Shown here: positions 2,209 to 48,813 of the stretch, piece after piece
Layout: each line of letters starts with the position of its first letter
Numbering within the stretch: position 1 is the stretch's first letter
NCBI GenBank assembly: GCA_910592345.1
Contig: CAJVPI010000121.1
Span: 1 to 51,563, forward strand
DNA from: Paraglomus brasilianum
Taxonomy: Eukaryota
DNA: 51,563 nt
Direction: 5' to 3'
Made by a program: the position numbers and the translations under genes
The notes under the pieces: generated by a model
Databases searched by the model: none
Told to the model about the DNA's origin: nothing
What the model saw: the letters and a program-made list of their open reading frames with translations, nothing else

Positions 2209-6428
<4,220 letters not shown>

Positions 6429-11068: not shown

Positions 11069-13719
11069 TCACAACATGACAATACCCAATTTACTGCTAT
11101 CCATATCTTTGCATTTCCAATTATACATATAATAATTTAACGTGCCATCTCCTGCACCAAATTTCAAAGGTTCGATAAACAGATTATTTTCCATGATATC
11201 TAAGCAATTGAACACATCGATATTTTCCTACAGACAAGAGAAAAGATTTGATGAGACAAACCATTGGGAATGAGCCATAAGCAATAAGTTGATCGTACTG
11301 GTCAAATTATATACCTGTTTTGCCAAAATCAAGGCATCCTTGATAAGCGCTTGGAGTCGTCCTTTGACAGCCTTCTCTTCAGTCTCCTTTATTGCGTAAT
11401 AGTACAGGTATACAGCATTAATGGTTTTATGTACTGCATGACCGATTACCGATGACGGCAAAAAGTAATAAGAAAAAAAGTCTGTCAATGTTTTCGTAGC
11501 AGGATCCTAACCAATCGTTATAATAATAATATTAGAACGGTGTAATAAAAAAAGCAAAAACATAGCATTCCCTTTACAATTACAGTCACATTCGTATACA
11601 CGTGCAACATAACCATACGAACCTCAACGACGTATGACCAAATGACGCCTTCTTTTGGTAAAAGCCAATGTCTAACTTCTTCATCCGACTTGAAGACTGG
11701 AACAAAGTTAAATTTGTCCATATATTCATTAAGCAATTTCCTAATTGCAGGAGCATCTTTTGATTTCATTGGCCGCAACCCGGGTGTAGCCGTTTCAGCT
11801 GGGAGTTTAAATTTCTTGATGACACGCGACATAGTCATGTTCGGAGGAAGACGGGAAAAGTTGGTTTCGATAAGTTTCTTTGGATTCAAATTACGGTGAA
11901 AATAACTACAAGTAAAATAGCGATAATGACGTAAATATTGGGAAAAGGACGCGAATATTGAGAAACGTAATGAATATTAATAGCTTGACATAAACACCGA
12001 CCAACCGACCAACCGACCAATTAATAAACAGGCCGGTCATCTGTCTGTCCTCTGTCAATATCATCACTCTTACCGTGCACTACAAATAGGTTTGGGCAGT
12101 ACAATACCGGCCGTATAAACAGCTTGAAAGATTCCCTGGACATGGCTTCGACGAGTAATCTCTTTGATCAGCACTGGTGACAATCGCTTGCTTCGTAACT
12201 TCTTATGAACGCAAAGGAAGTTTATCTCGACCAGATGTTGCTTTCTATTTAAACCGGTAATAAAATATTTGATAACGTTAGCATTCTTTTCGCATTCACG
12301 ACAAACATATTGATGAAAAGTGATAAACACGTACGATTTGTATATGCGAATGTCTGCTGGAGTTCCGCTGATGAATGCCACGAGCTTTTTGTTTGATGTT
12401 ACACGAACACCACAATGCCACAATTTTTTGTAACCTGGCGGTTGCAATGCCCTGATATTAAGTTAGCGTGCGTTAGAATACTAAAGCAAGTTCGGACGGA
12501 CATTATAATCTCACATCAACCACATATGTCGCATAAGATATACAATAAACAAATAAACAAACAACGGCGACATTAAAGAGAGAAAGAATAAAGGCCTTTT
12601 GCTGATTTCATCTAATCTGATAAGTTTGAAGAATCCTACTTTGGGTCGTTTCATCTAATCTAATCTGACAAGTTCGGAGAGTCTTATTTTGGTCATTTCA
12701 TCTAATCTAATCTGATTCCGTGAAACCCGTTTTCACTCACCATTTTAGAAACTTTGCCGAATAATCAAATCGGAACATTGCATCTTCGTCTTCGACATAG
12801 TTATTTGTCAAGAGGGTGTAGAGCTCACTTAGCTATAAGAGAATAAAACATTGTTTCTTTCAATGGCAAGAATTAAAACAACAAATAACGTATAACGAGA
12901 GAAAAAGATTGGAGAATGTATGTTCGTGTAGAATATCAATAAACATACATTCTCAGTAAAGTATATACCTCAGACTCGTTGTTAAGATCAATCGTACACC
13001 ATTCGAATTCCTTGGGAAGCGGATAAGGGTCTTTCCGTATTTGATCGTGGGGTGTATTTTCTTCAATTGGACCATCTTCATCAATTTCTTCATCTATTAA
13101 AATCATCAATCGCAATGAATTCAATCCTCACACGCACTGACGACATACTGACTCGACATTCCCACAATCGTTGCACAGACATGTATAATAACCACGCCTC
13201 TAATCGAAGAGGGAGGGGGAAAAAAAAAGAAACCACCAAAACTCGCTCATCCATTCTAATGGAATACTTACCAAGACGCGGTACAGGCTGCGTATCCCAA
13301 AACTTGTGCGTTTTACTCTCTTTACTTTTACTGGTTAGACTCCCAGACGAATTTAGGGCTTCTTGCATAGCAAGCCTATTAATCATTTGCTTAAACTTTT
13401 CTTGCCATTCCATAGCTTCCTGGACTTTCTTTTTGGCTAATTCCTCCTCGCCTACAACAGGCGCAGCGCTAGTGCCCGCCTTCTCTGCCTTTTTCTTCGT
13501 CTTTTTCATCAGTCTTTTAGCCTCCCGCTTTTTCTGTTTCTCACGCTGCCTCTCGGCAGCTGTCATGCTGACACTTCCTTTGCTCTCTACGTCTTCGTCT
13601 TCGTTGGCAAGAGCCGGCTCGTCCGTGTCTGTGATTTCGACTATTTTGGCGGTAGGAGAAGCCTCCTCTGGGGGCATTACCTCCTCCGAGAGTGGTGTCT
13701 CTTGTTGTTCGGAGGCCAT
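11069..13719 (-). CDS. NMT1: Glycylpeptide N-tetradecanoyltransferase (N-myristoyltransferase), multi-exon
   Basis: Motifs [78 protein letters not shown] and C-terminal LGIVML-stop. Confidence 0.96.
12606..12716. repeat. ~47-bp imperfect tandem repeat in an NMT1 intron
   Basis: TTTCATCTAATCT(AATCT)GA recurs three times with related spacers. Confidence 0.75.
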
Positions 13720-14801
13720 AATTCCCTATCTAAGAAGCTCAAGCCGGACTGAAAGGACTAAAGGAAAAATTGTCATACCCCCACCTAGTTGTGTTCACTG
13801 ATCTTTGATGCTCACATGAGATTGGCCAATTAGATCGAGTTGATCATGCTGTTTATGGTTATACACTGCGAAAATTCACAAAGATGATAAATTAACATAC
13901 TGTATATAAATGCTACATAATAATAACGTTGAACAAAACATTTAATAGAACCATGCAAAATAAAGCCATTCACTTTTTAATCTGTTAATAAGATGTAAAG
14001 CCACCATCGTTGTATAACAGCATTCTCTTGAATATTTATTTGTGTTCTCCTTGTATCATACGCTACTTCTCTGTCAATGTCACCTTCAAAATAATATAAC
14101 GGAAATGGATAAGAACTGGAAATCTCTTATTTCCCTTAATAGGTAAAGGTGCGATTTTTGAATTCCCAAAAAGTTAAATATGGGATTGCAACTTTAAACA
14201 GGCTATGTAAGTTGATAGACTATGGAAATTGTTTATCGCAGTAACAAAATTAGACATTTACTATATATCGACGAAAATCACCACAGAGGTTGTGTGGGGG
14301 AAAAAGATTAGAGTGCGTAAAGCGCGTGCTGGGAACATGCTTACGATATCGAGCGTGTGAGAGATTGATTTTTTGGAGAGTTAGCGTGAATTTGGTAAAC
14401 TGTGAGAACAATTCAAGATCGTGAGACTTGCCACACAAAAGACTCTAGCCCGTTCCTTGATGCTGATCGAGTATTTAACGCTAAACTAAAGAAGAGAAAG
14501 ATCTTTCTCAAATCAATGATTAGATCTTTTCTTTGATATGCCATCCCACCGCCATATGAACAACATTTCATCAATTGTGGAGTATCATAAACTTTTAATT
14601 ATGCCCAATTCTTTTATTCCCAGAGGAAACGAAACTTGCTCAAAGAGCCGGTATTTTTTTTGTCTCCAATCGATCGAATTACCCTCTTTCCCACGGAACA
14701 TGATTTATAAATACACGCACCAAGTAGTCATGACCTTTATCCGTTTGTGAGGATACCCAAACAACACAAAAGCAACCACGATTCTCGTAACTCAAACCAT
14801 C

Positions 14802-16204
14802 ATGTCTATGCTCTCAAGAGTGCATTCCAGAGATCAGGAGATCATCACCATTACAGCCGCCGACGAATGGCTCGGATATTGCATCGCCGATACGTTACTT
14901 GGCTGTCACAATCGTCGTTTCAAAGTCCGTGCCTTATGTCGTGATAAAGACAAGTGCGAGAGACTGCGCAGAAAGGGTGCCGAAGTTTGCGAGATTGATT
15001 ATGACGACCGTGGAACTCTCGATGTTGGAGTCAGATATTCGAAATGGATTGTTTTTGTGGTCGAAAAGGAACATGATCGAGTTGACAAGGCGGAGGCGTT
15101 ATGCGATGTAAGTAGACTGGAATTTTCCCCGGGGAGTAAATGGTGTAAGGATAAGCTAATCAATCGTATTTACGTGTTCATGTCTATTAGGCCATCAAGC
15201 ATGCAGAAGTCAACAATGTCGCCTTGATGAGTACTCTTGGAACTATTGATTCCGACTGTCCAACATTTACAGACTATGAGCACATCGAAAACGCCGTCAA
15301 GAATTGCACTGACGACTGGGTAATCTTACGGTACAAAAGAAATTTTTCAAAATGACTTTATACAACTGTTCATTCCTTCCACCCCCCGCATCATTATATA
15401 ACCTCAAATTATATTTATATTTCGTCCCATAGTCTTGCTTTCATCCAACAACTTTTCTACTATTGGAAGAAATCTGTCCAAGAACATTCCATGTTGAGCT
15501 TTTCGATCCATCCAGACTCGCGCTTTTCTCCAATTCATCTAGACGACGTCATGGACTCTTTTCGCGAGATTGCTTTCCGCGGAGATGTTCCACGTGACAT
15601 AGACGCAAAACACCGTCACAAGATTTACACTCTTACCGGACCCGAGGCCATAGATGGTTTCATTCTTGCCGACATTATCAGCGAGGCTATCGATCACCGT
15701 TGGTTCGTTCGCTTTATGGAGACCTCTAGAGAACAAGTCGAGCGATATTTGAGATCATTGGGAGGAAAGAGAGACCGCAACAATATGTATCCTGAGGGTA
15801 GGAAAGAGCGCAATTATCCCCCACCTCCACCACCGAACGAAGTTTGTATTGACTCTATGTGAGTATTCAATGTGAATTGGGAGGGTTGGCGTAAGTTTTA
15901 TATACTTTGCATATAAATTTATTTGCTCTTCTTCTTCTTTTCTGCAGATGCGATCACTTTGACTATACCAGAGCCGGAAAATCTGACTATATTACTGGTG
16001 ATGTACTTCGTATTACGGGGAAACCACCCGTGCGTGCCGTTTGGTATTTCAAGGTTTGTATTGCTCAGTTTAATTAGCTGTTGCGTTGTTTACGTACAAT
16101 GGCGTGATGCTAATGAATCTTTTTAAAAAAAACAATAATAGGAAAATGTGGATGATTTCCGTCCTCTGAAGCCTACTAGTACTAGTACTAGAAGCAAAAT
16201 GTAA
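14802..16204 (+). CDS. NmrA-like / atypical SDR NAD(P)-binding Rossmann-fold protein, 5 exons
   Basis: ITITAADEWLGYCIADTLL...KVRALCRD...GAEVCEIDYDD; PIHLDDV; YTLTGPEAIDG; phase-consistent GT-AG splicing to ...ITGDVLRITGKPP...FKENVDDFRP...KM-stop at 16204. Confidence 0.8.
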
Positions 16205-27480: not shown

Positions 27481-28831
27481 ATGATGGCTCTAGTTAGCAG
27501 TCAGGATCAGTTTGATAAACAAAAGTCGCCTGCTGATGTAAACGCGGACGAGCCAATTGTTTCGTCTAGACTGTCAATGCTACAAACATCAATATGTGGT
27601 GTGGTTGCTGGCATGGCTTCCAGGTATATACAAAAGATATGCTAAAGTATGGTTTATGCAATCTTGCTGACGTTGTTTCTCGATCTGCCGATGGGCGAAC
27701 TGAATGCTAATTAAGATTTGCAGTAGCTCCACTTGATGTCATAAAGATTAGACTACAGGTTAGCGTAATTCACTTATACTTTGTAGCTACTACAAGAGTA
27801 GATACCATGGTTAAACACTCAACTAGTCAGCGACCTGCTAATAGTAAGCATTGTGCTTTTCCCATAATCATTAATACAGCTGCAAACAGTTCGCCATGGA
27901 CCGAAATATCGTGGCATGTTTCATGGACTGAAATTAATTGTCAAAGAAGAAGGGATACGAGTAAGTTTCGGCTTAATCGCTCTATAAAAAATCTACCTAT
28001 TCAACCATATGATCGTTTTCCCAATCAATATACAGGCGCTATGGAAAGGCAATCTCTCAGCCGAATGTCTCTACCTTTCATATGGTGCGGTCCAGTTTTT
28101 GAGCTATCAACAAGTAGATGCTTTACTCAAACGAATGAACACATCTGTGCCAATACCGAACATATTAATGCCTTTTATTAGTGGTGCTTTGTGCGGATGT
28201 ATTGCCACCGTCACGACGTATCCATTCGACTTGCTCCGAACCAGATTTGCAGCCCAAGGGAATAAAAAAATCTATAACAGTCTATCACACGCATTGAGGC
28301 AAATTTATCGCTACGAAGGCATCGGGGGGTTCTTCAAAGGAGTAAAGCCAGCAGCGATTCAAATCATGCCATACATGGGTATTAATTTCGGATGTTATGA
28401 CATTATCAAGAGACGGCTGCAGGTATAACCGGAAACCGTAAATCAGTCCCCCACCATCCTTGTATACGTTATTCATACTACATCTATCTGTTCAAAACCA
28501 GAAATCCAATCAATCAAACGTAATGAGATCTATAATAGATCTAACTAGCGGTGCTCTAGCCGGATTATTCTCCAAGACGGTTGTGTTTCCACTCGACGTT
28601 GTACGGAAGCGAATGCAGATACAAGGGCCTAATAGGATGGATTACGTCGTCCATAATGTTCCCGTGTATTCAACATCCGTTCTGACCTGCATCAAGGAAA
28701 TATTACATAAGGAAGGTCTGTTAGGATTGTATAAAGGACTAACGCCTGCTGCTGTTAAGGCCGCTTGTGCTAGTGCTGTTACTTTCTTCATATACGGACA
28801 AACCAGGAACTTACTTGAACGAATGAAATGA
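27481..28831 (+). CDS. TPC1: Mitochondrial carrier, most like the thiamine pyrophosphate carrier
   Basis: Three PX[DE]XX[KR]XR signatures (PLDVIKIRLQ, PFDLLRTRFAAQ, PLDVVRKRMQIQG); WKGNLSAECLYLSYGAVQF is typical of Tpc1/SLC25A19. Confidence 0.85.
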
Positions 28832-29813: not shown

Positions 29814-30406
29814 ATGTCGCATATAATTTCAGAGCCATGGATTCTTTCTATTATTACTCGCTTCTTTAATGAGAAGAGAGCATTCTACGAGGATCAAATT
29901 TTCCATGGACAAATTACTAACGTAAGTGCTAATCCCATTCGAGTTAATTCTAAACTTTTTTTTTTTAATGCAAAAATTCTCTACATTGAATTAACGAAAT
30001 TGGTGCCTTGCGATAGATTGAGTACAGGCCACATGCGAACATCTTTAGGGCAAAGTTAAACGACCGTAATAGCATAGTTCAATGCGAATTATCTCCTTCC
30101 CCCCTAAACCGGTATGCTATCCTTTACTCGTGTCCGCGTAACTGTGCATTAAGTTGACAAACCAAAAATGTAAAAAAAAATATTTTCTCATGGGTTTATT
30201 AAGCGTGGCCGAAATGAAATTGTTCGCTCCATTTATTGTTGTGAAGGCTTTTTCTGTCATTGTGGACGCGATGCCGTCTAATGAAGAACGGATGGTTTAT
30301 TTAAGTATAAAAAATTACGACGTTACTCACGGTTATATCAATCCTCAACTTTTGGCCAGCTTTACACCGATTTGGAAGGAAAAGGCAATCAAAAACGCGG
30401 TAAAAG
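29814..30406 (+). CDS. Est3/TPP1-like OB-fold exons (probable N-terminal extension of TERT)
   Basis: Exons 29814-29921, 30017-30111, 30204-30406 splice in phase: MSHIISEPWILSII...HGQITN/IEY...RAKLNDRNSIVQCELS...R/VAEMKLFAPFIVVKAFSVIVD...VYLSIKNYDV, paralleling TPP1-OB PWIREL, GQLLEV, LLVSDGTHSVRC, LLLQDCGV, FYLQVDRF. Confidence 0.65.
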
Positions 30407-30671
30407 GTACGTAACTCTATTCAGTATTTACCTATTTTCTTTACGCGATGATATACCCAAGCACAATAGTGTTGCATCGGTAAAGCCTAAATTAGTTTTA
30501 TTTGATGATAATTGATTGATTTACCATGCAATTATTTATCTATCATATTGATAATCAGTCTTTACGTTGTAATCGTCATACGATAATTCAAAATCCTCTT
30601 TTATCAAATCTAGTTGGCTAACCGCATTGCATTGTCTCTCTTACCTGCACTTTTTCATCTTCATCTTATAG

Positions 30672-33600
30672 AGTACGCAACTGCACCGCAAATGCCGGTT
30701 GATTTGACTCTTGAGCGTTTCCTAGAAGCGATGGAATCCTCAGCATCGACCTCGTTAGACACTCGCAGGTCGTCCAGTCATATAAGCGTGTTAACTGATG
30801 ATTTTCTCGAAGAACTAGGTATATCGATGACTCCAAAGTCACGTAAACAATCTGATGAATCCGCTGAGCATACACGGACAGATACGGAGGAATCTCAAAC
30901 GGCAAAGGTTGCAATGAACATGCCAAAGATTCACAGCTCGCTAATCTTAAGAAGACTATTCGGAGATCGTATCACAAGTTTAGAGACATATTTGCACGAG
31001 GTGGTCGGACCGGATGTTTGCCTTGTAATCAAAGAAGATAAAGAAGATTATATTAGATTTCTTAGGGATTCGTATGCATTTGCTTACACGAAGGTGGAGC
31101 CCACTTCGGAAAGTGTAGAACGTTTTGGCCTTCCAAATGTAAGTGATAACGTGACAATCTGCATAAACTTTAAATCAGAATAAACCTTAAACTCTATGCC
31201 TCATTCAGTTAGTAGACAAGGTAATTGAAGATTCAATAATGGTCGGGAAGACATTCTTGAGAAATGTATTGCTGAACGGATATAGACAGGTATATGAACT
31301 TGCTACTCGCAGTACTAATAAGCGGAACTATATTTATTTACCAATAATTCTACGCTTATATAATAGCAACGTGTTGGCAAAGAAAAAATCACAGAGAATT
31401 TCTATCCGAATAGTCTTGTGGAATACATAAAGACTTCGACTTCATGGCAAACGCTCTTTCGTAGGTGGGCAAACGTGCATATTGATAAGAAGCAGCCAGT
31501 AGTCTTTTGTCTCATATAACACATATACTCCCTTCAATTGCCACAGAATTGGGGCTAAATTTATAGAACATCTTCTAAAGAATGCAGCAATCTTTATCGG
31601 ATTGGAGAATGGCTGCTTCTTTCAGATTACTGGTAAGGAAAATGCAAATGCTACACTCTAGATACCAGAAGAAATAAATTTTCAATTTAATTTTCTAAAA
31701 TTCGCTATTGTAATGAATAGGTCCTCCGATTAATCACAACCTTAATGCTACTGTTCGCACTAACCCAGCTTTCAGTAAAAAGCGTGGTAGTGCACCGGAG
31801 GTTGCTCATATTACCAGAAAGAATGTCACAAAGAAACGACGTTTGCACGAACCGAAACAAGACCTCGATCCAGATGTTTCTCAACAGGAGTCGATCGGCA
31901 AGAACTTGCCCGAAAAATCTACGATTGCTGAATCGAAAAGCACGGACGCATCGATCGCGGCAGGCAACGTTTACGAAAAGCCAACGCGAACGTATACAAA
32001 TCTAACATTTTCCCCGTCAGCTCTATTTTATGCACGAGCGAGACGTACTCAGAAACAAATCTGGATAGGCCTTTCCTTCAAACGTACGTGAGAATTTTGT
32101 AAAATAATATGTAATTAATATAGCTAATATAATTCTATTGCTATTTCGCAGATATCTTTAACCGTATTGTAAAAATGAAAAAGGGGGGAAGAAAAGAGTA
32201 TGGTGCCACACACGTTATGCGATACATATTTCCTAAACAGTTTGGAATGCCAAACGTCTTTGATACGGTACACCAGAAGGGAATAGTTGTAAACGCTCTC
32301 GGCAACACGTTTTATCGTGAGGCCGATATAATGGTATACATGGTTTCTCAATTATTTTGCAAACCAAGTTTTTTTATAGTTATATTAACTGACCCTTAAT
32401 TAGATTGCCGGAGAGAAACCGGTCCCGAAGCATCTCGTTCATATTGGAAAAGATATCGAAAAAATCATAAATTCACACAAAAGCTGTCCGTATCCGGCAT
32501 TTTATGATCAATGCTGTCCCAAGAAGGTATTTGGTTAATGATACTCGCTTGAGCTTGATCGAAATAGGGAATTCTGAATAGAATGGTAAAAAAAAAACAA
32601 AACTTATTTAGGAATTTAACGGCGACCCTTTAGCCTGTGACTCAACTTACGGCCAGGCACATTGATCACATTTCTCATGTATTGGATTAGATTCTTTCGA
32701 TGTAATTTACTAATTATGAAGTTATATATATAGGTCGCGGCATTTGTTCATCGCGTCATAAGACGGCTCGTCCCTGACACGTTCTGGGGTGGCGTTGAGA
32801 ATAGAAATTCTATTTTCGAGAGTAAGACAAATTAGTAGGCTAGTTTTGGATACGAATTGGATAGATTAACCAATTTCTTTCCTTTTTTTTTCTTTTTAAG
32901 AAATTTATAAATTTATTTGCTGTGGACGAAACGAGTGCACAACCCTACACGAAATGCTCCAGGGAATCAAGCTAAAGAAATGTGGTTGGCTTGTAAGAGC
33001 AGTCCAAGACCAAGATGCAGGTACGCATTGATATTTATGAAATTATGCTTGATTGCTTGTTATGACTCCAACTATCTTTGAATATAGTCGCCAAATCCCA
33101 TGTAATGAGACAACTCCTTGGAGAATTTATTTGGTGGCTAATGGAATCCATTGTTTGCTGCCTCCTCCGTGTAAGCTTGCCTTTTCCATGTTTCCAGCCT
33201 TTTTTACTTTCCCACTGACCCCCGGTAAAATCTCCGGACCGTAAATAACAATTATCACTCGCAGACTTCTTTTTATATAACAGAAAGTGCCTCCCAAAAA
33301 AAGCGCGTTGTCTACTTTAGACACGACGTATGGGAAATGATTACGGAGAATAAGCGAATGGAGCTGATGAAATCAACATATGTCGAGATTCCCCAAGTAT
33401 GACTAAGAAAATCTCCTTCGTTTATTGTTATTTCTCCCCCAAAATATTAAGTGTACTATTACAGGACAAGTTATCAGAATATGAGGGAAAAACTCTCGGT
33501 TACGCGACTCTTCGATTGGCTCCTAAGGTCGGCGGATTTAGACCAATCACAAATCTAAATATGCCAGTTAGACGAATAAATGGAGCCGTAAGTTGGATGT

Positions 33601-36164
33601 GCAATATTATAAATATAAACCCGTGTATAAAGAACAACGCTTGCGCGTGTGAAACCTGTTATTAAATTATTGGTTTGCAGCCTTCACAGATACTTAACGA
33701 AAAGGCTCCGTCTCCAAATAATTTATTATCAGATGTATTTAATATTTTGACGTTGGAAAAGGTAATTTGTTCTGTTCATAGCGCATGCAAGACTTGAAAT
33801 GAAACTAGATTTTTTTAATTGAGATAAAATACTCCTTAAAGTCGCGAGTGCTCGGCGATTCCTATATCAGCGGCCTAGGAAGAGCCTACGAGCATTTAAA
33901 AGCCTTTAAAAAACGATTGACAGTCAGGTATTGTTCCCGAAATAGACAGCATGATCACTGTACAACTTTTCGGATACGAATATACATCAAATTACATTAA
34001 CAGGCAATTGCTTTCGTTATGATTTCGACAGTAGCGCGTTATTGTACTTTGCAAAAGTTGATATACAAGCATGTTTTGACACGATTAACCAAAACGTCCT
34101 GATGGACATTGTCAAGGACATTGTCTTAAAGAGCGAATATTATAGAGATGCAAATGTTTGGCTCGTTCGTTCAACCAGCGATAGTATTACAAAGCATCAG
34201 ATACGTCGGCCTTCATACGCTGGTGAGATTAAGTAAATGCTTATATGATAAAGAACTTATTGCAGAGGCCTATGCTTCTAATGTCGCGCGAATTTTTTTC
34301 CATCATTAGACAATTTTACACAGTTCAGCAACGTTGCGCATGAACTAGCCGAGTCCAGGCACAATGCTATCTTTGTTGATGACTGTATCTACTATAAAAA
34401 GTCGACAGACAAGCTTCTCGAACTGTTAGAAGAGCATGTGAAGAAACATGTCATCAAGGCAGGAATTATCTATACGTGTACGAAACAATATATAACAACT
34501 ACTGATAGCTGTTTAATCAACTAGGTTGATGACAAATACTACAAACAGCATACTGGTATTCCGCAGGGCTCTATAATTTCAACATTGTTGTGCAGGTAAA
34601 TAACTTCCGCAAAAAAAGAAGCCTCTTTTCTCTGTGAATTTAGCTAAACATCAAAATTGTTTTGCAGTTATTTCTTTAATGAAATGGAGCGAGAAAAGCT
34701 CCCGTTTGTCCGTGATGAGGACAGTGTAAGCTAGATAACAAGACGTACTTTTGCAAATAGATCTTTTAATGAATTGGTTAATGATAATAACCTTGGGGGT
34801 TTTTTACATGCATCTGTAATCTGCAGCTGCTTCTCCGCTATATTGATGACTTTTTATTTATAAGTCTCGACAAAGGAAAGGCAGAAGAATTTTTAAGGGT
34901 GATGTTTGAAGGTACTTGTGATACTTATTCATTCAAGGCAAGTTGATGGAGATGACGAGATACCTACTTTTTATTCATAGGACATTCACATTATGGATGC
35001 TTGGTAAACAAGACAAAGAGTATAACAAACTTTGAGACAGAAATCTGTGGACATAAAATGGGTGATGGCATGGTTGTTGAAGAACCTATTGGTGAGCATT
35101 ATCAACATGATGTATTGATACATTTTAGAAAACTAGAATCTAACCACTTGTATATTGATATATTCTTTGTTAGATTTCTCATGGTGTGGTGTCCTGATAA
35201 ATACAAAGACCTTGGAAGTGAAGTGCGATTATTCCCGATATGTGGACATGCGTATCCTTTATGTGCAAGTGCAAAAAAATTTTTATTTTTTTTTACATTC
35301 TTTGCACTAAATTCAGTGTCAACCAAGTTGTCTTGTTCTTAACATATTCTGTTTGGTAGACGTGAAAGATACAATCTCAGTCAGTATGCATACCTCCATT
35401 AAGGACCTCAAAAACAAGCTGATTCAGTGTGTGGTTTTCATTATGTTGTCTGATTGTCACGGATAATGGGACGAAATGTCTGAACGTGTCCATTAATTCA
35501 TTTGTAGGATGATGCATCCTGGTTGGCAGGACATTTTTGTCAGCTTGGACTTGAACACCATACAGACAGTCTTCCTCAACCTCTATCAGAATTACATAGT
35601 GGCAGCAATCAAGGTATCTGTTGAGTGATTCTTAATATACAATAACTAATTTATTTGTATCTTCTTATATTTAGTTCCGTCATTATCTCCAGGCACTGAG
35701 ACGATCTGGTTACCATTCGGATGAGGAGCGTGTTGCTGGTATGCATTGGATGACAGTTTTTTGCCAATAACCGTCGGCCCTAAAGCCAGTTTCTTCTGCA
35801 GAAGCTATATACTACGCGTGCGAATATCCGTGCGTGCTGAAGGCGGGAAGTCCTATGTTTGTACCGCGCTTTAGGAAACGGCAACTTAAATGGTATGTGT
35901 AATTATTGTATTGCTATGCACTGGGAGCTCTTGTTTTATTGATATCCATATCCTAATAGGCTTGGGACACATGCGTTTCTCCGTGTATTTAAAATGATCA
36001 AAAGACAATACCCATGCCTAGTTAAGAATTTGAAGATAGTTAAGCATCAGTATTGCCGAGAAGATGTCGAGGTACTTTATTTTGCTTCTGACATAAATAA
36101 CAGCGAGACTTTGAAGACATTACTATACGGTGCTGATATTCAAAATCTGACCGTGGATAAATAG
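30672..36164 (+). CDS. TERT: Telomerase reverse transcriptase, highly intron-rich
   Basis: TEN (NVLLNGY; IG...LLKNAAIFIGLENGCFFQITGPP), YIFPKQFG, CP, QFP, T motif FYITESASQKKRVVYFRHDVW, LRLAPK..FRPITN, YFAKVDIQACFDTI, GIPQGSIISTLLC, LLRYIDDFLFIS, SWCG, CTE WLGTHAF; stop 36162-36164. Confidence 0.95.
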
Positions 36165-36980: not shown

Positions 36981-39851
36981 ACTCGATAATTCTTGACGAT
37001 GGAATTCGACCCGTGTTTATATCTTTTTCGCGGTCGATAATTTCTGCGTATTTCTATTTTGTGCTTGTATACCGTGTCAGATTTTAGGGCAGCGTCTAAA
37101 TTTACCCCGTGTCAGAAAAGCGGGCTACGGCTATGCACAGTAAATTAGAAGTTGCTTATCGATCAGGTGGTTTGTTTCGACATTAGGTATTAGTATTAGA
37201 GGATGTGACTTTAACTTGCCGATCCGATTCAAGCATAATTACTTTTATAATAAATATTAATGGAGTATCGGCAAATATCCCACATGGTTTTCTAATTCAT
37301 TTATCAAATTATATGTGCGAATATAAGGAAAATCGAATTAGTTATGATTAAAATTTGTTAACAAGACTACTACTTTCGAGCTTTAATGTAATTTTTTTTG
37401 CACCTTGTATACACGTTACTGAGAAGCTGGCAAAGAAATTTGATACAGCAATATAGAAAACAATATTAAATTGGTCATTTCTTCCGCAGCAGTCACCTGA
37501 TGCACTATACAAACTGTTTATATGTCTTAGATTCGAACAATCAATTATTCGAATGCCATGAGAGTAAATAGATCAATAATCCATATAAAATGGAAGACAA
37601 ATATAGATAGAGTACGTATGATTTTGAACGGAAAATAGTACGGGTATAATCGGCTGAACGGCTTAATATTAAGCCATTAAATTGAGGCATTATCTATAAA
37701 AAAAAAATTACTAGTATTAGCAATGCCATTAGTGAATATGTTTTAGTTGTCTTTTACAAATGACAATGATTAAAAGTAGCACTCACATATAATGAACGCG
37801 CCTTCTTATATATTTGATTAGTTAAAGCAATTGTTAAACCTAACTGGATTTGAATCTCATAATAATCGACGGCAAAGTAAACGATGCAACAGAACAGACA
37901 TTTACGTTCTTTTTATCAAATGTGAAGTAGATGACAATTTGGTCAAATATAGAAATGATAGTTACTATTACTTGGAATATGCCATCAACATTTTTCTCTT
38001 CAATCAGGGCAAACTTTTATCTTAAAAATCTGAAGAGACAGAATTCAAAGCAAAGGCTCGTATTTAACTAGCCAGTTGTATTAAAATATGGAGGACGCAA
38101 ACAAGAATTGGAATTTACGGATGAGACGGCTCTTGGGTAGGTTGTGTAAAGACAATAATACGATTAATAGTTGGTGACGTATTTCTTCCTCATTTCTGCG
38201 CCGCTATCATCGAACACATTTGTAGGTGGTAATCAGTCTTACCGAAATGGACAAATATCGATATCCGCAGTGACAGCAAAATCGACCGCTTTTAGACAAT
38301 CGGCAAAATATAATATTAGAATCATTAACATCACTCAAGCGCCATATACTCTCACAAATATTATCAGTGTTCTGCTACGACGTACATGCAAGCATTGGAC
38401 AAATTTAGAACATGTAGATCATACGTAATATCAAGAATTGGAATTATTTATTTCCGGGGTAAGCAATTATCGATATTATTAATTTTAATTAATTAAAGTG
38501 ATTGATTCTTATTCTGTTACATGTTTAACAAATCCACGCCAAGATTCGAATTTGGCATTACAAACAAAAAAGTGCATGCTTGTTATGCAACATGCTAACA
38601 ATGGTAGTTTTTGGTCAACTATTAACCAATTGCAAAGAAAATTTTACGTGACACGAAATCCTTGCTTATTTACAGAGTGTATCATCTGCAATACGGTAAC
38701 GCATTGATGTCAGCGTTGGACCTTGGTCACTTTGATGATGTTCAATTGTTTGATATTTGAGGCATTGCTTGCATATTTTGGATTGCTGCTCTGAATAGCT
38801 TGTTGTTATATAAATTAGTAATTATCTATCAGACACTTTTATATGGCGCTATTACTAAAGTATGTATGGTGCGAATTTTGGAACAAGGAGATGACAATCT
38901 GTAGTTGATTTGAAGTCATTGTAATTAGTAGTAATTTTATGTGATTGAAGTTGAGTTAAAGGATAAAACTTAACTCTGCTTCTATTTTATTCAAAGAATT
39001 TCAGGATTAGATGACGTTATTCATGTTATCGTTTTCCGTAATATGACAGCTTTAGGATTAGTATAAAAATAATTGTTTGTCTAAATAAAAATTTATATAA
39101 ATTTTCTTTTCTACTTTACGAGTGTTAAACAAGATTGTCACTACCACTACTATCATCTACATCATTACCATTAATATAACAATTATCACCAAAGAGTCTT
39201 TTATCCAAAATTTCCAATTCGTTGATATTCCACAAGTCTTAAAAGGATTCTATAATAATTTTGTCAAAAATATCTTAACCGGAAATCCTTAACCCACAAA
39301 CGCACATGATTAAACCTGGCGTGGCGAAGATTTCTTCTCCTGCGGCCATCCAGGCATATGAAGGTTATCCTTAAATGGCTATTTATCGCGACATCGAATG
39401 GTTGGTCAATCCACCTAGAATTACTGCGAGATGAAAGTCACCAAATAGACCTTTAAAGAATCGTCTACAAGCAACTTTCGATTTTTATGTATATTGAATA
39501 ACCACTCTCGACAATTGACAAGAAAAAAAACATTAGAAAATTAATTAATTGAGTGTCGTAAAGTGAATATTAATATTAATATATTGCCCTGTGACGCTAC
39601 TCAACAAGTTTTCTAATTCCAAATCCTTCGCATATTTATTGCATTGCAGTTACTGGCTGAAATGAAAAGTCTCTATATAATGACGTAAAGAGGCGTTGAT
39701 TAGAATGTTCGTCTTTTTATTCGAGTAACACTAATTTATACTGGCGTCTCACCAGCATTTTTTAAATACTGCGGATAACAAAAATAATAAAAAAGGTAGA
39801 AGATGTAACTATAACTGCAATTACTGTGCTTGCTTCATTTACTGCAATGCG

Positions 39852-41321
39852 ATGCCTCGCCCTAACACTCTCGCAAGTGACCTAAAGTTGGTTATCAATG
39901 ACCCTCGATACAGCGACATAAAAATAAAATGCTCTGATGGAGAACTCCACGCCAGCCGTATCATTCTAGCGGCTCGGTGTCGCTACTTTAATCAAATGAT
40001 ATATGCACCGGAAGATACCAACCAGAATTCAGAAATCAATTCGTTCATACGACGATTCTCTGAAGGAATCAAAGTCGACGATTCCGAAATCGTACTAGGA
40101 GAGCTAACAACAGCGGCCATGAAAATCGTGTTAGAATTTATATACACCGATTCGATCGAAAAGGACTCTGTTACTGTCGACACTTTGGTTGATATATTCT
40201 ACGCTGCGTATTATGTTGGACTTGATGAATTACAAAAGACAATTATTTCGATTGCCAAAAAACGGATACGCAATAAAAGCATGAACGACTTGGCATTGCT
40301 GCTATCCAAGGCTGTAGCGACATTGGGTAGTTCTCGAACCAATATGCTCTACGATCTCTTGCTGGAGCATCTCGGCAAGAAATCTCTAGACCAAATCACT
40401 TATAGTAATATCACAGTAGATGCTTTGTTGGTTTTGATGAAGGTGACTGGAGGGAATGCAAAGTTTACATTCGTGACGTCGGAATATGCGCTGCTTCGAT
40501 ACGTTATATTGCATACGGCGGCTCGAACGTCCGACTCGATATTCGAATTGTTGCGATCTCGGTTACCTACGCAAGCAGCGTTGAAAAAGCTCGACGATTC
40601 TGAAAAGCAACGGGTGGTTGAAGGTGTTTCGTTAGAAATCCAAGACTTGCAAAAGGTTAATGATCAGATACAGCAGTTTATACCTTTGATTGATTTACGG
40701 AGAATCGAAGTCAGCGTTGTTGCCAGTTACATCGAACCTCTTGGTATAATATCAGCAGACGTTATCAATCAGTTGTATCGATATTATGCACTAGGCAATA
40801 TTCCATTACCGCAGATGCGTGATGGGATGATTCTGCAGTGGGATCCAAAGCATTGTGGTGATGGCCTTGATATTGCCGAAGACGGGTGCGTCGTAGTGAC
40901 AGCCCCTAATACAAAGACTAGACCTTCTATTCGAGCCAACAAGTTGTTTTACGGATCCGAGGTGTATGAGTGGGACATAATTGTCGAACAGCCATGTAAC
41001 TACGTATGGATTGGCGTTGTTAGCGCTGAGTGTGTTGATTTCAATGGGTTCTTTGGTACAAGTGCCCATGGGTGGGCCATTGGATCTAACGGATACAAGT
41101 GTACGAACAATGAATACAATAGATATGGGCAGCCTTTTGGAAAGGGAGCAATCGTCACGGTACATCTAGACCTGAACAACAAGAAAATTTCATTTACGAT
41201 CAATGGATACGATTATTCTGCTGCATATTATACTCTTCCTGGCCGTCTTTATCCTGCTGTTTCCATAGATCATCCGGGTCAGTTGAGGATTAGACCGCAT
41301 AAAATTAAAAGTAAAAAGTGA
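39852..41321 (+). CDS. BTB/POZ-SPRY domain protein (intronless)
   Basis: YSDIKIKCSDGELHASRIILAARCRYF...LEFIYTD (BTB); YEWDIIVE...WIGV...VTVHLDL...FTING...LPGRLYPAVS (SPRY). Confidence 0.92.
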   Translation: MPRPNTLASDLKLVINDPRYSDIKIKCSDGELHASRIILAARCRYFNQMIYAPEDTNQNSEINSFIRRFSEGIKVDDSEIVLGELTTAAMKIVLEFIYTDSIEKDSVTVDTLVDIFYAAYYVGLDELQKTIISIAKKRIRNKSMNDLALLLSKAVATLGSSRTNMLYDLLLEHLGKKSLDQITYSNITVDALLVLMKVTGGNAKFTFVTSEYALLRYVILHTAARTSDSIFELLRSRLPTQAALKKLDDSEKQRVVEGVSLEIQDLQKVNDQIQQFIPLIDLRRIEVSVVASYIEPLGIISADVINQLYRYYALGNIPLPQMRDGMILQWDPKHCGDGLDIAEDGCVVVTAPNTKTRPSIRANKLFYGSEVYEWDIIVEQPCNYVWIGVVSAECVDFNGFFGTSAHGWAIGSNGYKCTNNEYNRYGQPFGKGAIVTVHLDLNNKKISFTINGYDYSAAYYTLPGRLYPAVSIDHPGQLRIRPHKIKSKK

Positions 41322-42395: not shown

Positions 42396-43869
42396 TTACA
42401 CAATCGTGACGTTGGTGTCGTTGCCCTGATGGACTGTCTCTTCCTTGATTGACTTTGTCTCGCCAGTCCTTGTATTGACGGTAATGAGACGATCAACGTG
42501 GTAGTAAGCCAATTCACCGAGTTCAGCTTCGTCAAGACCTCGAGTTTCTGTTTCATGATCAGCACGAATAGCAAGACCTGGAATCTTGTCCATGAGAAAG
42601 AGGATAATGTAGGTGAGAGTGAAAGAGTAGCTCATGCCAGCGGCAGAATCGGCAAGTTGACGAGGTACTTGAATCCAGTTGCCATCAAGCCAACCACCAT
42701 CGATCGGTACTGCTGCAGTGTCGAGCATGACAATTTTATTCTGGGCGAAGATACCAGTCAAGATGTTGCCAGTGAGACCGCCAATACCGTGGACAGCGAA
42801 CACATCCAAAGCATCGTCAAAGTCGAAAATGTGCTTCAATTTTACGGCCATGTTGCAGCAAATACCAGCAGCGACACCAAAGGCAACTGCAGCTGGTGGT
42901 CCGACGAAACCAGATCCAGGGGTGATAGCTACAAGACCAGCGACACAACCAGAACAGAATCCAACAACAGAAAGTTTACGTTCCAAACGGTAATCCAATA
43001 ACATCCAGGTAAGACCGCCGACAGCAGTTGCCAAGTTTGTTACGAATGAAGCCATAGCAGCACGAGCACTAGCGTCACCAGCTGAACCACCGTTGAACCC
43101 AAACCAACCGAACCAGAGGAAAACGGTTCCAAGAACGACGTTGGCAACATTGTGGGGCTTGAATTCATCAGTTCCGTGACCGTGTCGTTTACCGACAATG
43201 ATACAGTATGCAAGAGCAGCAGCACCAGATGAAATGTGGACAGGCGTACCACCGGCGAAATCAAGAACACCGAGTTGGAATGCCCAACCCTGTGGATTCC
43301 ATGTCCAGCAAGCAATGGGATCGTAAACAATAGTCGACCATATAAAGATGAAGATGATGGCAGGAACGATGCGGCCACGTTCGGCGGCTGAACCGATGGC
43401 GAGTGCTGGCGTGATCGCGGCAAACATGCCTTGGTAGACGGCGAAGAGGATTGACGTGAGAGCTGTTGCGGTAGTTGATGTATCACTACCCACATCCATA
43501 AAGAATGCATTTTCGAGATTGCCGATGAACTTGCCGGCGTTTGAGTTGAAAGCTAAACTGTAACCCCATAACCACCACTGTTTGAAAGAAAGGGTGCGTG
43601 TGTTAAATTACATAGATATGCGAAAATCATGCGTGGCGCAGTGTAACAGCAAAACTCACCTGGAATGATACGACAGCAAGAGATAGCATGGATAACATGA
43701 TGAGCGATAGAGCATTCTTGCTGCGAGCAAGACCACTGTAGAAGTAACCGACACCCGGAATCATTATCATGACGAGTGCGGTAGATGTAAGAAGCCAAGC
43801 GGCATCCCCGGGATTAAGCGGGACGGGAGCAGGAGTGTCCGTCGAATTAGCTGTACCGTTGGACCCCAT
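42396..43869 (-). CDS. AMT: Ammonium transporter (AMT/MEP family), 2 exons
   Basis: DFAGGTPVHISSG, LWFGWFGFNGGS, FDDALDVFAVHGIGG (twin His), GLDEAELGELAY; one intron ~43579-43660. Confidence 0.96.
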
Positions 43870-45916
43870 AGTTACTACTTATTGGTTTATTGTGATGAAA
43901 TTAAAGTGTAAAGGGGAGAGAGAAAGGTGTGTGTGTGTGAGGGACAGTGAGAGCAAGGTTACTTATAGTAAAAGCCAGCTTGCGAAAGAAGGATATATAA
44001 AGATCGTAATCCGTAGGACAGTCGAGTGTGATAAAAACGAATGTTGCGTATATACCAAATAAAGTTGGTAACGAAGAAGTCAGGATGAGCGAAATGCAAT
44101 ATCTTTATATAGGTTTTTTTTTGGTCGACAACAAGAGATCAACGAGATCTTTAATCATAACAGATACACAGAAAATATGTGTGGTTTGATTAAATATACA
44201 CAAACTAATTTAATTAATGATCATTGATTTAATTTATTAATTTATTCGTATATACTGTATATTTATACATCAACAAAAATGTTGTGGAACATTTATCACG
44301 TTGACTTATCTTTTGTGCTACTTTGTGAAAAAGTTAAATAGATAAACACCAGTATTGAATAGCTATATATACTATGAGCACATGATTGTCTTTCCTTTTC
44401 AATAGATTCATTGTAGAACGACGATAACAGTTTGCACTAATGGGGAAGTCTAGAAAACTTAATCTTTTGGATTTGCTAAACCGGATGTGATAAAAAAGAG
44501 ACACGAGGCGTAGACAATTGCAGTTACAACATGGGTTTTTTGTCTCGTATCTTGCCGAAACAATGATTTCCCGTTTTTCCAGCAGATATGCAAGATCATC
44601 CATATAGTACAATGTACGGAAGCTCCGATAACGTTTATTCTCCGTATATTTACAACTTCTCTATTAGAAAAACAATAGCAACAACACAGCTAGAATATGC
44701 CGTATAAAAAAAATAGTTATACCAAACCACACACAGTCTCTCGCCAATATATCGATTATCAAACACCAGCCGTAGGACATATGATATCCTGACATCCAAT
44801 GATATTGTCATGCTAGTTTAAGTAGTTTCTCTTATCAAAAGTGACACAAATTTACCTTATATGTATTAGATTTGCGCCCAACTAGCCTATCCAAGAAATC
44901 CAAGAAATGGATAGCGGCGGGTGGTTTTCCGTATTAGGAAAGTCGAAATTCTATCAGGGAGCACACAGTTCCGATAAATTTACACAAGTCATCGTCGCAC
45001 AAAAGTGTATGGTATAACGCGACCGCCACAATTATGGGTTTTTACAAGTATTAGTCAAGTGCAGTTAACGAATGGTGTATCAAAACATAAATTACTTCAT
45101 AAAACTTTTGTATTCACATTATAAGTATCCTCATAGTGGTAGTCTCATAGTGGTAGTTTCGTATCAGCCCTTTTTTACAGACGAATGGCAAATTAACGCG
45201 TGTTTCTCATAGTAATGGCTGTATTCCCTTTTCTAGGAATCGATACTCGACCGCACCATCAAACAACATGCTCGATAACATGCTCGATATACTCAGCATA
45301 TGATATGATATACTCATCATATTCAAAGCTTAAATATGATGCTGTGTACCTTGTGGCGCGTTACGTTCCACTTTATATAACAACAAGTATTCTGTTTATA
45401 TTACTAATGTACAATCGACTAATCAGCTATCGTGCGAATAATGAGTAAAACTATGTATGCTGTACATCATTTTCACATGTATTATGAATCCACTGATCTC
45501 GGCCAATAAAAGTTAGTTATATGAATTGAAAAGTCAAACTTGAAGAGTTTTGGTCGTCAATTGATGGAAGGTTTCAACTGTTAAATTGGATACGATGTAA
45601 TTAATTTGAGTTTAATTCCTGACTAATAAATTGAAAGACATTTTGACACAACTACATATTGCATTTCTTATCAACATTTTCAATTCCAAAAAAAGTTAAG
45701 GTTGGTGCAAACGGACTTGTGCGAAAGAAAAAGATAACGTCAAATTCATGATTATCACTGATGATCCTTCTTCCCCATTACTCATTCCCTTTACGTATTC
45801 AATCCTGATATATAAAGTTATACAAAGTCATCTTTTTAGGATAGCACGGCGATATCAGTGCATTATCATATCGTAAACAAGACCATGCGGATGTGGACTT
45901 GTTTAGAGAGATTGTA

Positions 45917-47235: not shown

Positions 47236-48813
47236 TTACTTTTTTGTGTCCTCTCTCAATTGGAGTCGCACTTTGCCAGGATATCGTAATGACGCCGCAG
47301 GATATACTTTGGCAGGAAGACCCGTGAATGCGTTTTCATACTTCACTCCATTAATAGTGAATCCACACGTCCTTTGGTTCATGTCCAAATGAACAGTAAC
47401 AGTAGTACCATCACCAAATGCAACACCATACTGACTGCTAGATGCCGGTGGGTTATATTTCGTCCCATTGGATCCTATTACCCATGCGTCTTGCGTTCCC
47501 AAAAACTTTCCAAAATCTATTCCTTCCGTGCATACTCCAATCCACATGACTGAACAAGTTCGAACTATCACAAAATCCCATTCGTACACTCCGTTGTCAC
47601 AAATAGGCAGCTTTGCACTAATCGATTGATGAGCCTGGCATCGAGAATGTGTCTCTGCTAATGCATTATTGGCAGATATTATTAGCTTGTCACCACATTT
47701 AAATTTGTCCCAATGGAGTTCTTCATCCCATCGCAATGTAGATGACGTGGCCAACTCGGAAATAGCAGTCGGTAGAGGGACGGCTTTTGGATCCCCTCGT
47801 CGGCATGAAAGTGGCCCTTTGTTCCGCGCTTGCACTCTGTATGTCTCGAGAAGCGTTTCTTTGGGTATTATGTCTAAAGGTTCTATTACATCTTGAAGTA
47901 CTTCGGCTTTGATCCTTCTAAAATCTACGTATTGGCATACTGGAGATACAACGCCGGCAAATTTATTTAGAAACACTTGATACGATTGGTCATTGACAAT
48001 ATTGTCCGTCTGTGTCCATTCGGTAAAATCATTCATGTGATTTGAGCGAGGGAGATTGGAGTCGAGAAGACTTGCTAAATCAGGCGACACCTCAAGTGCG
48101 CCCCATATCATGATATATCTAAACACGTCGTATTCATCTGTTGCAAAAAAGATTGCCTCGTCGCGCATGGTCAATGACAATAAAACTTGCAGAGATCTCG
48201 ACGTGAACTTTTTGCTATCTATGGCTGTTAATTGCGAACATACGATATATCTACTCAACAAGTAAAACAGCCTATTTACCAATTCAGCATCCGGCATTGC
48301 TTCCAATGCCTTGGACAACAAATCCACCGCATAGTCTGTTGTTTGCGTGGTCAGTTTACTATCGATAAAGTTCAATATGTGATCCTGTAATGGTGTGATC
48401 ATAAAGTAATCGGCTGCTGCGTATGCTATGATTGTGTTTTCGAGCGTTAACGATTCGGGCGCAAGTGTATCGGTGTAAATATATTCAAGGATTACTTTCA
48501 TGGCAGCGCATTTTATGGTTGGAAACGAAATCTCGTTTGCATTCGTTTCTCGCATTCCGTTATACAAAAGACGGTCGAGCATTTCACAACGCGTCGCGAG
48601 GAGTGCACGACAACCGTACAGGACGTCATCTTCGCACATGAGTTTTATGTCACTAATTGAAATAGAATGCCATTGTCACACACCATTTCGATGCCAACTT
48701 TTGACAAATACATCAATTGACTACCTGTATCGGGGATTATTCAAAGCACTTCTTAAATCGTCTACCAACGAGTCTCCTTTCTTCCATCTGTTGATAAGGG
48801 CTTTGATAACCAT
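47236..48813 (-). CDS. BTB/POZ-SPRY domain protein, 2 exons
   Basis: Exon 48813-48725 (MVIK...SLVDDLRSALNNPRYS), intron 48653-48724, then BTB and SPRY domains paralogous to 39852-41321. Confidence 0.92.

Follow-up and report, generated by a model that had tools for sequence, protein, structure and literature searches.

Does a telomerase exist in nature whose catalytic subunit carries its own activator within the same polypeptide? This question is raised by the 5' part of the telomerase reverse transcriptase (TERT) gene of Paraglomus brasilianum, a mycorrhizal fungus belonging to the Glomeromycota (Paraglomerales). The gene lies on contig CAJVPI010000121.1 of assembly GCA_910592345.1, whose positions 1 to 51,563 are the window analysed here. 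An earlier note on this DNA had proposed that exons located ahead of TERT encode an oligonucleotide/oligosaccharide-binding (OB) fold of the TPP1/Est3 type, fused in frame to the TERT N-terminus. The gene structure is real, being conserved in the gene models of two Paraglomus species and spliced in RNA contigs, and this TERT with its extra N-terminal domain is probably a natural TPP1/Est3-TERT fusion. In the systems described by the papers cited below, TPP1, Est3 or p50 contacts the TEN domain of TERT in trans; this contact is the conserved step at which recruitment and activation of telomerase are regulated.

As read from the sequence, four exons (29814-29921, 30017-30111, 30204-30406 and 30672-31138) constitute a single open frame, and the three introns that separate them (95, 92 and 265 nucleotides) all have GT..AG ends. 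The features of the locus are the following.

29814..29921, forward strand: exon 1, which holds the start codon and encodes domain residues 1-36, among them the PWI motif, the first helix and the GQI motif
30017..30111, forward strand: exon 2, encoding residues 37-68; its L-x-D-x4-V-x-C motif is encoded from 30056 onward
30204..30406, forward strand: exon 3, residues 68-136, comprising two strand-like hydrophobic stretches and, at the C-terminal end, a helix-like one
30407..30671, forward strand: intron 3, 265 nucleotides, phase 1, GT..AG, with GCTAAC at 30617
30672..30913, forward strand: linker of about 80 codons, rich in Ser/Thr and Asp/Glu, with two amphipathic segments, VDLTLERFLEAME and LTDDFLEELGIS, helix-like in a propensity scan
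30914..30916, forward strand: internal Met directly before TEN (M154 of the public P. brasilianum TERT model of this locus, P0001, and M220 of the P. occultum TERT model, P0002), candidate ancestral or alternative TERT start
30914..36164, forward strand: TERT proper, multi-exon, with TEN, TRBD, RT and CTE (from Pfam, the exon map and RNA joints)

Exons 1 to 3 total 406 nucleotides, which corresponds to 135 residues plus one base; the three phase-consistent exons of about 135 residues announced by the earlier note are thus borne out, in one open frame with TERT. The same applies to the signals of intron 3, i.e., a phase-1 donor at 30407 (AAG/GTACGT), an acceptor ending at 30671 and a GCTAAC at 30617, 55 nucleotides ahead of exon 4. 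Branch-like hexamers located 50-60 nucleotides upstream of the acceptor are also found in several other TERT introns of the locus. The linker of about 80 residues that had been announced before TEN does exist as an open stretch, but between the domain and the start of the TEN profile it counts about 88 residues (136-223 in P0002). In the same way, the downstream ATG is present but at 30914 rather than 30913. The four TERT domains (PF11474, PF12009, PF00078 and PF21399) score above the curated Pfam cut-offs in both P0001 and P0002, and a protein search with a TERT exon retrieved P0001 with 100% identity and P0002 with 72% over the same exon.

The architecture is shared by a second species. P0002 starts with the same three exons (tblastn identities of 84%, 78% and 85%, that of exon 1 covering 37 residues of its N-terminus), then continues into TERT. 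Between the P. brasilianum model and P0002, the domain is as conserved as TEN (118 of 135 and 144 of 165 residues, 87% each) and the linker somewhat less (63 of 86, 73%), with its segment VDLTLERFLEAME identical at 13 of 13 positions and LTDDFLEELGIS also identical. A third lineage is represented by P0020, an 86-residue gene call on a 668-nucleotide European Nucleotide Archive contig, which corresponds to exon 3 read into the intron and has its exon 3 donor at an unchanged codon. Its read-through tail can also be aligned with the beginning of intron 3 of P. brasilianum (30407-30500), which probably reflects just close relatedness. Among the possible downstream starts, the ATGs at 30731 and 30914 are conserved in P. 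occultum and that at 30692 is not. A TERT start at 30692 as a conserved feature is ruled out, P. occultum having an Ile there, and initiation at this place in P. brasilianum is unlikely because this Met is not conserved. Met 30914, which sits at the usual place of a TERT start, may be the ancestral one.

RNA evidence comes from runs of which five contain a small share of the region; four of these were compared, all as assembled contigs. One contig from one of these four runs, X3, skips exactly the 265 nucleotides from 30407 to 30671, with GT..AG ends. It is 157 nucleotides long with a depth of 7.3, its shorter side covers 67 letters, it has one differing letter and it bears the flag 'between: not known'. 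The junction between 30406 and 30672, for which the earlier note had suggested an RNA check, is therefore seen. A contig from a second study, X2, joins 30111 to 30204 and so skips intron 2. Eight differences are listed in its exon 3; three are silent and the other five all give the P. occultum residue, which indicates that two lineages express these exons. A third contig, from X1, has exons 4 and 5 spliced together and shows letters of the relative's type. Unspliced or intergenic pieces also occur in X1, which thus contains DNA or pre-mRNA; DNA would nevertheless hardly account for a precise GT..AG splice joint. Of the 20 RNA joints, 15 are listed and none of these connects exons 1 and 2; this joint rests on the splice signals and on the P. 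occultum model. With an RNA contig across the junction, the same architecture in a second species and a start at 30692 that is not conserved, the in-frame fusion of the upstream exons to TERT stands.

The identity of the added domain was approached through its motifs. The same succession is seen in both species: PW and a hydrophobic residue ahead of a helix, then GQI and L-x-D-x4-V-x-C, then two strands of hydrophobic residues, and lastly P-I-x2-E-x2-I-x3-V within the final helix. The collinear succession of PW-hydrophobic, GQ-hydrophobic, L-x-D-x4-V-x-C, strands and C-helix is what we take to be the hallmark of TPP1/Est3; a literature search for these motif residue names found nothing. A regular expression combining the first three motifs matches residues 7-59 of P0002, none of 14,061 open reading frames (ORFs; 966,471 residues) and one of 100,000 shuffled sequences, which shows rarity and not family, because the pattern had been designed on this very sequence. 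A crude propensity scan gives a helix at 8-18, strand-like segments at about 28-39, 43-51, 54-61, 76-90 and 96-108, and a helix at 124-135. This pattern suggests the five strands and C-helix of Est3, whose layout is beta1-beta5 plus a C-helix (PMC7338525). The assignment to TPP1/Est3 draws on the collinear motifs and on this crude five-strand pattern and, given the fusion, we regard it as likely.

It should be emphasized that several results weigh against this identification. Pfam gave no family at E≤10 for residues 1-141 and no TPP1/Est3 match for single exons or whole proteins, so that the profile search of the spliced domain by which the earlier note proposed to check its OB fold gave no match to that family. 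Among PDB sequences, three unrelated matches were obtained (E 0.14-0.89), and a profile search gave none. HMMER over 1.84 billion representative proteins retrieved two close homologues only, P0001 and P0020, and no named relative. HMMER filters discard weak matches, and the TPP1/Est3 family (PF10341) is highly divergent. AlphaFold2 models, with mean pLDDT of 38.0 and 37.1, are too poor for comparison with TPP1-OB or Est3, and prediction of a complex between the domain and TEN (ESMFold2, run without alignments) scored 0.00 in both runs, with the verdict 'no answer'. The Est3/TPP1 OB fold of the earlier note thus agrees with the motifs and the propensity pattern but is matched by no profile, the structure models being unusable. 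Furthermore, the domain is net basic (12-13 D/E vs 16 K/R), whereas both human TPP1 and yeast Est3 have a negatively charged TEL surface (PMC7338525). The lack of any family match and the basic charge would also suit a real fusion in which TERT captured something else. This could be an OB fold of another kind (RPA70N-like or POT1 OB-N-like) or a beta-rich domain of unrelated origin. The POT1 OB-N, too, is described as having five strands and a helix between them (PMC9119445). In addition, the motif match was made post hoc. However, a PW-hydrophobic start before the first helix and a P-I-x2-E-x2-I-x3-V helix at the end are typical of TPP1/Est3 and are not known as features of RPA70N. Moreover, the domain is attached to TERT, the very protein known to be bound by TPP1/Est3 (PMC4359370; PMC7619062). 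Capture of a domain of another kind is unlikely in our judgement.

Other points against a fusion concern the transcript. The key junction (30406/30672) is found in one contig of one study, no contig of the four runs extends from the N-terminal domain through to the RT exons, and the conserved Met 30914 could allow an unfused, free TERT isoform. The locus might then correspond to two neighbouring genes, a small Est3-like one with its stop at 30412-30414 and a normal TERT starting at 30914, mostly producing separate proteins, with the spliced join as a minor read-through isoform. Intron 3 is indeed three to four times longer than the 13 other RNA joints (265 vs 66-92 nucleotides, one joint with letters between being left out), and the stop codon lies two codons past the donor. 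Against this, the 80 codons between the acceptor and Met 30914 are open and conserved at the protein level in both species, including the fully identical segment mentioned above. No AATAAA, ATTAAA, TATAAA or TATATA occurs between 30407 and 30700, exons 3 and 4 are joined in each of the two public models, and assembly of the junction from a low-depth metatranscriptome would be improbable if the isoform were rare. Two mostly separate genes are thus, in our view, quite unlikely. A gene-prediction or assembly artefact, in which the upstream exons would be part of another gene or of none, could find an argument in the public models, which differ in their start (30190, inside intron 2, for P0001) and are not independent of predictor habits. 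Nevertheless, contigs of two studies splice exons 2-3 and 3-4 at the predicted bases, protein identity across species reaches 87% and exon 3 is kept in a third lineage; the RNA contigs largely refute this explanation, which we find barely credible. Taken as a whole, a natural chain made of a TPP1/Est3-type OB, a linker and TERT appears fairly probable.

The public models of this gene call for correction. P0001 joins exon 3 to exon 4 but starts at the ATG 30190 inside intron 2, and thereby loses exons 1 and 2; this start is likely wrong, as it lies within an intron spliced out in the X2 contig from a related strain. A corrected P. brasilianum model regains the half of the domain dropped by the public one. 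P0001 looks faulty at two further places, as it lacks 34 TRBD residues present in P0002 (33021-33290) and diverges in the early CTE (35090-35510). According to RNA joints and to the sequence examined by hand, a 45-nucleotide in-frame TERT exon (32612-32656) is followed by a GC..AG intron (32657-32733); this exon is skipped by both public models (CCPKK to VAAFV). A second GC..AG intron of TERT (34459-34524; 34456-34523 in the unshifted listing, the shift being made by hand) is seen in contigs of three of the four runs. It restores HVIK ahead of VDDKYY, absent from the public models.

The fusion is shown for Paraglomus only. TEN starts at residue 224 in P0002 vs 2-35 in 16 of 17 other TERTs, as positioned with a profile built on nine fetched TERTs, the 17th (P0019) giving no TEN match. 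In a metagenomic sample of fungal TERTs (129 matches, 80 loci kept), the TEN start is visible in 47 loci, and in 46 of them an in-frame Met lies 3-76 codons upstream. None of the 80 loci matches the N-terminal domain (best tblastn E 1.6, best phmmer E 5.5), and Pfam detected no TPP1 in 114 upstream ORFs from 34 TERT loci. As 79 of the 80 loci score nearer to the Colletotrichum TERT than to P0002, this sample says little on early-diverging fungi; the sole locus marginally nearer to P0002, L040, begins at a Met just ahead of TEN. Of 19 proteins retrieved by a TERT search, two being without a name, none bears the name of a further member of Glomeromycota or Mucoromycota, and a search with the region, among 55 candidates, found P0001 and P0002 alone. 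A metagenome scan with an exon 3 pattern gave 277 matches, none confirmed, and the ESM Atlas gave a TERT cluster at 0.75 alone, with nothing usable when TERT families were skipped. No account of a natural TPP1/Est3-TERT fusion or of a Paraglomus telomerase was found in the literature searched, from which most subscription papers fall outside, and the accessible part of bioRxiv 10.64898/2026.04.26.720725 mentions neither a fusion nor names in Mucor- or Glomer-. Within the window, there is no second copy of the domain.

If such a chain is made, the N-terminal OB would dock in cis on the TEN/IFD surface of its own TERT, the flexible linker of 88 residues allowing it to reach the site used by TPP1/Est3. 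The activating contact made in trans by TPP1, Tpz1, Est3 and p50 would become intramolecular, and the regulated step would therefore move elsewhere. Candidate controls are the binding of a partner to the conserved linker helices and the choice among the fused form, free TERT from Met 30914 and the free domain. The latter would arise from retention of intron 3, which, read from the sequence, leads to a TAA at 30412-30414 and to a stand-alone domain of 137 residues. A Trt1-Tpz1 fusion engineered in fission yeast is functional: it maintains telomeres, it also rescues tpz1-K75A, and recruitment that depends on Ccq1 is bypassed (PMC4159562), so a single chain of TERT and activator can work. Tethering can offset a weakened interface, a possible reason for a less acidic patch, and the two conserved helix-like linker segments may be a remnant of the POT1-binding helices of TPP1. 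A bolder proposal, which we regard as doubtful, is that the TERT N-terminus is the only TPP1 of Paraglomus. Its OB would activate in cis, the linker helices would be the retained POT1-binding segment, and TERT would be a telomere-resident shelterin subunit controlled by splicing and start choice among fused, free-TERT and free-OB forms.

The functional equivalence of Est3 and TPP1 is debated, being doubted in PMC2853109 and partly supported in PMC7619062. If the fusion is what it appears to be, a single-chain form would bring Rosetta-stone support to this equivalence, would indicate that the contact between activator and TERT can be permanent and would offer a self-contained construct for telling activation apart from recruitment. 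It also provides a candidate TPP1/Est3 in Glomeromycota, missed by sequence searches.

Elsewhere in the window, a mitochondrial carrier gene (27988-28831) lies about 1 kb upstream of exon 1. Other housekeeping neighbours are an MCM subunit (2723-5484) and an N-myristoyltransferase (11231-12462), along with a weak NmrA-like match (14751-15224). Two BTB-SPRY genes in opposite orientation (39735-41318, forward strand; 47239-48675, reverse strand) flank an ammonium transporter (42399-43878, reverse strand). No other telomere gene was found among the 87 window ORFs of at least 75 residues, nor any telomeric repeat tract in the window.

Among known systems, the closest are human TPP1 (ACD) and fission yeast Tpz1, which likely share the same type of N-terminal OB, judging by the motifs. 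TPP1 binds TEN of TERT directly, with a K78-E215 contact (PMC4359370). After its OB come helices that bind POT1 and a disordered linker rich in Ser/Pro (PMC8653790), an arrangement that the helices and the Ser/Thr-rich linker of the Paraglomus protein resemble. However, TPP1 and Tpz1 belong to shelterin as subunits of their own and reach TERT in trans, whereas the Paraglomus domain lies within the TERT chain, and neither a TIN2-binding end nor an acidic TEL patch is evident in it.

The Est3 protein of budding yeast is a stable telomerase subunit that docks on TEN and IFD of Est2 via its TEL patch and NOB (PMC7619062; PMC2853109). It is a lone OB fold whose size is similar to that of the Paraglomus domain. 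Unlike this domain, which is covalently linked to TERT, Est3 is a separate polypeptide encoded by a gene of its own, and it binds Est1 and Pop1 as well; furthermore, the roughly six residues preceding the PW motif in Paraglomus leave little room for a long NOB. The engineered Trt1-Tpz1 of S. pombe also unites activator and TERT in one chain, but it is artificial and carries full-length Tpz1 at the C-terminus of Trt1, whereas the Paraglomus protein would be a natural fusion with a single domain at the N-terminus. Compared with a canonical TERT (TEN-TRBD-RT-CTE), the Paraglomus TERT has all four Pfam domains above cut-off and differs by about 220 extra N-terminal residues.
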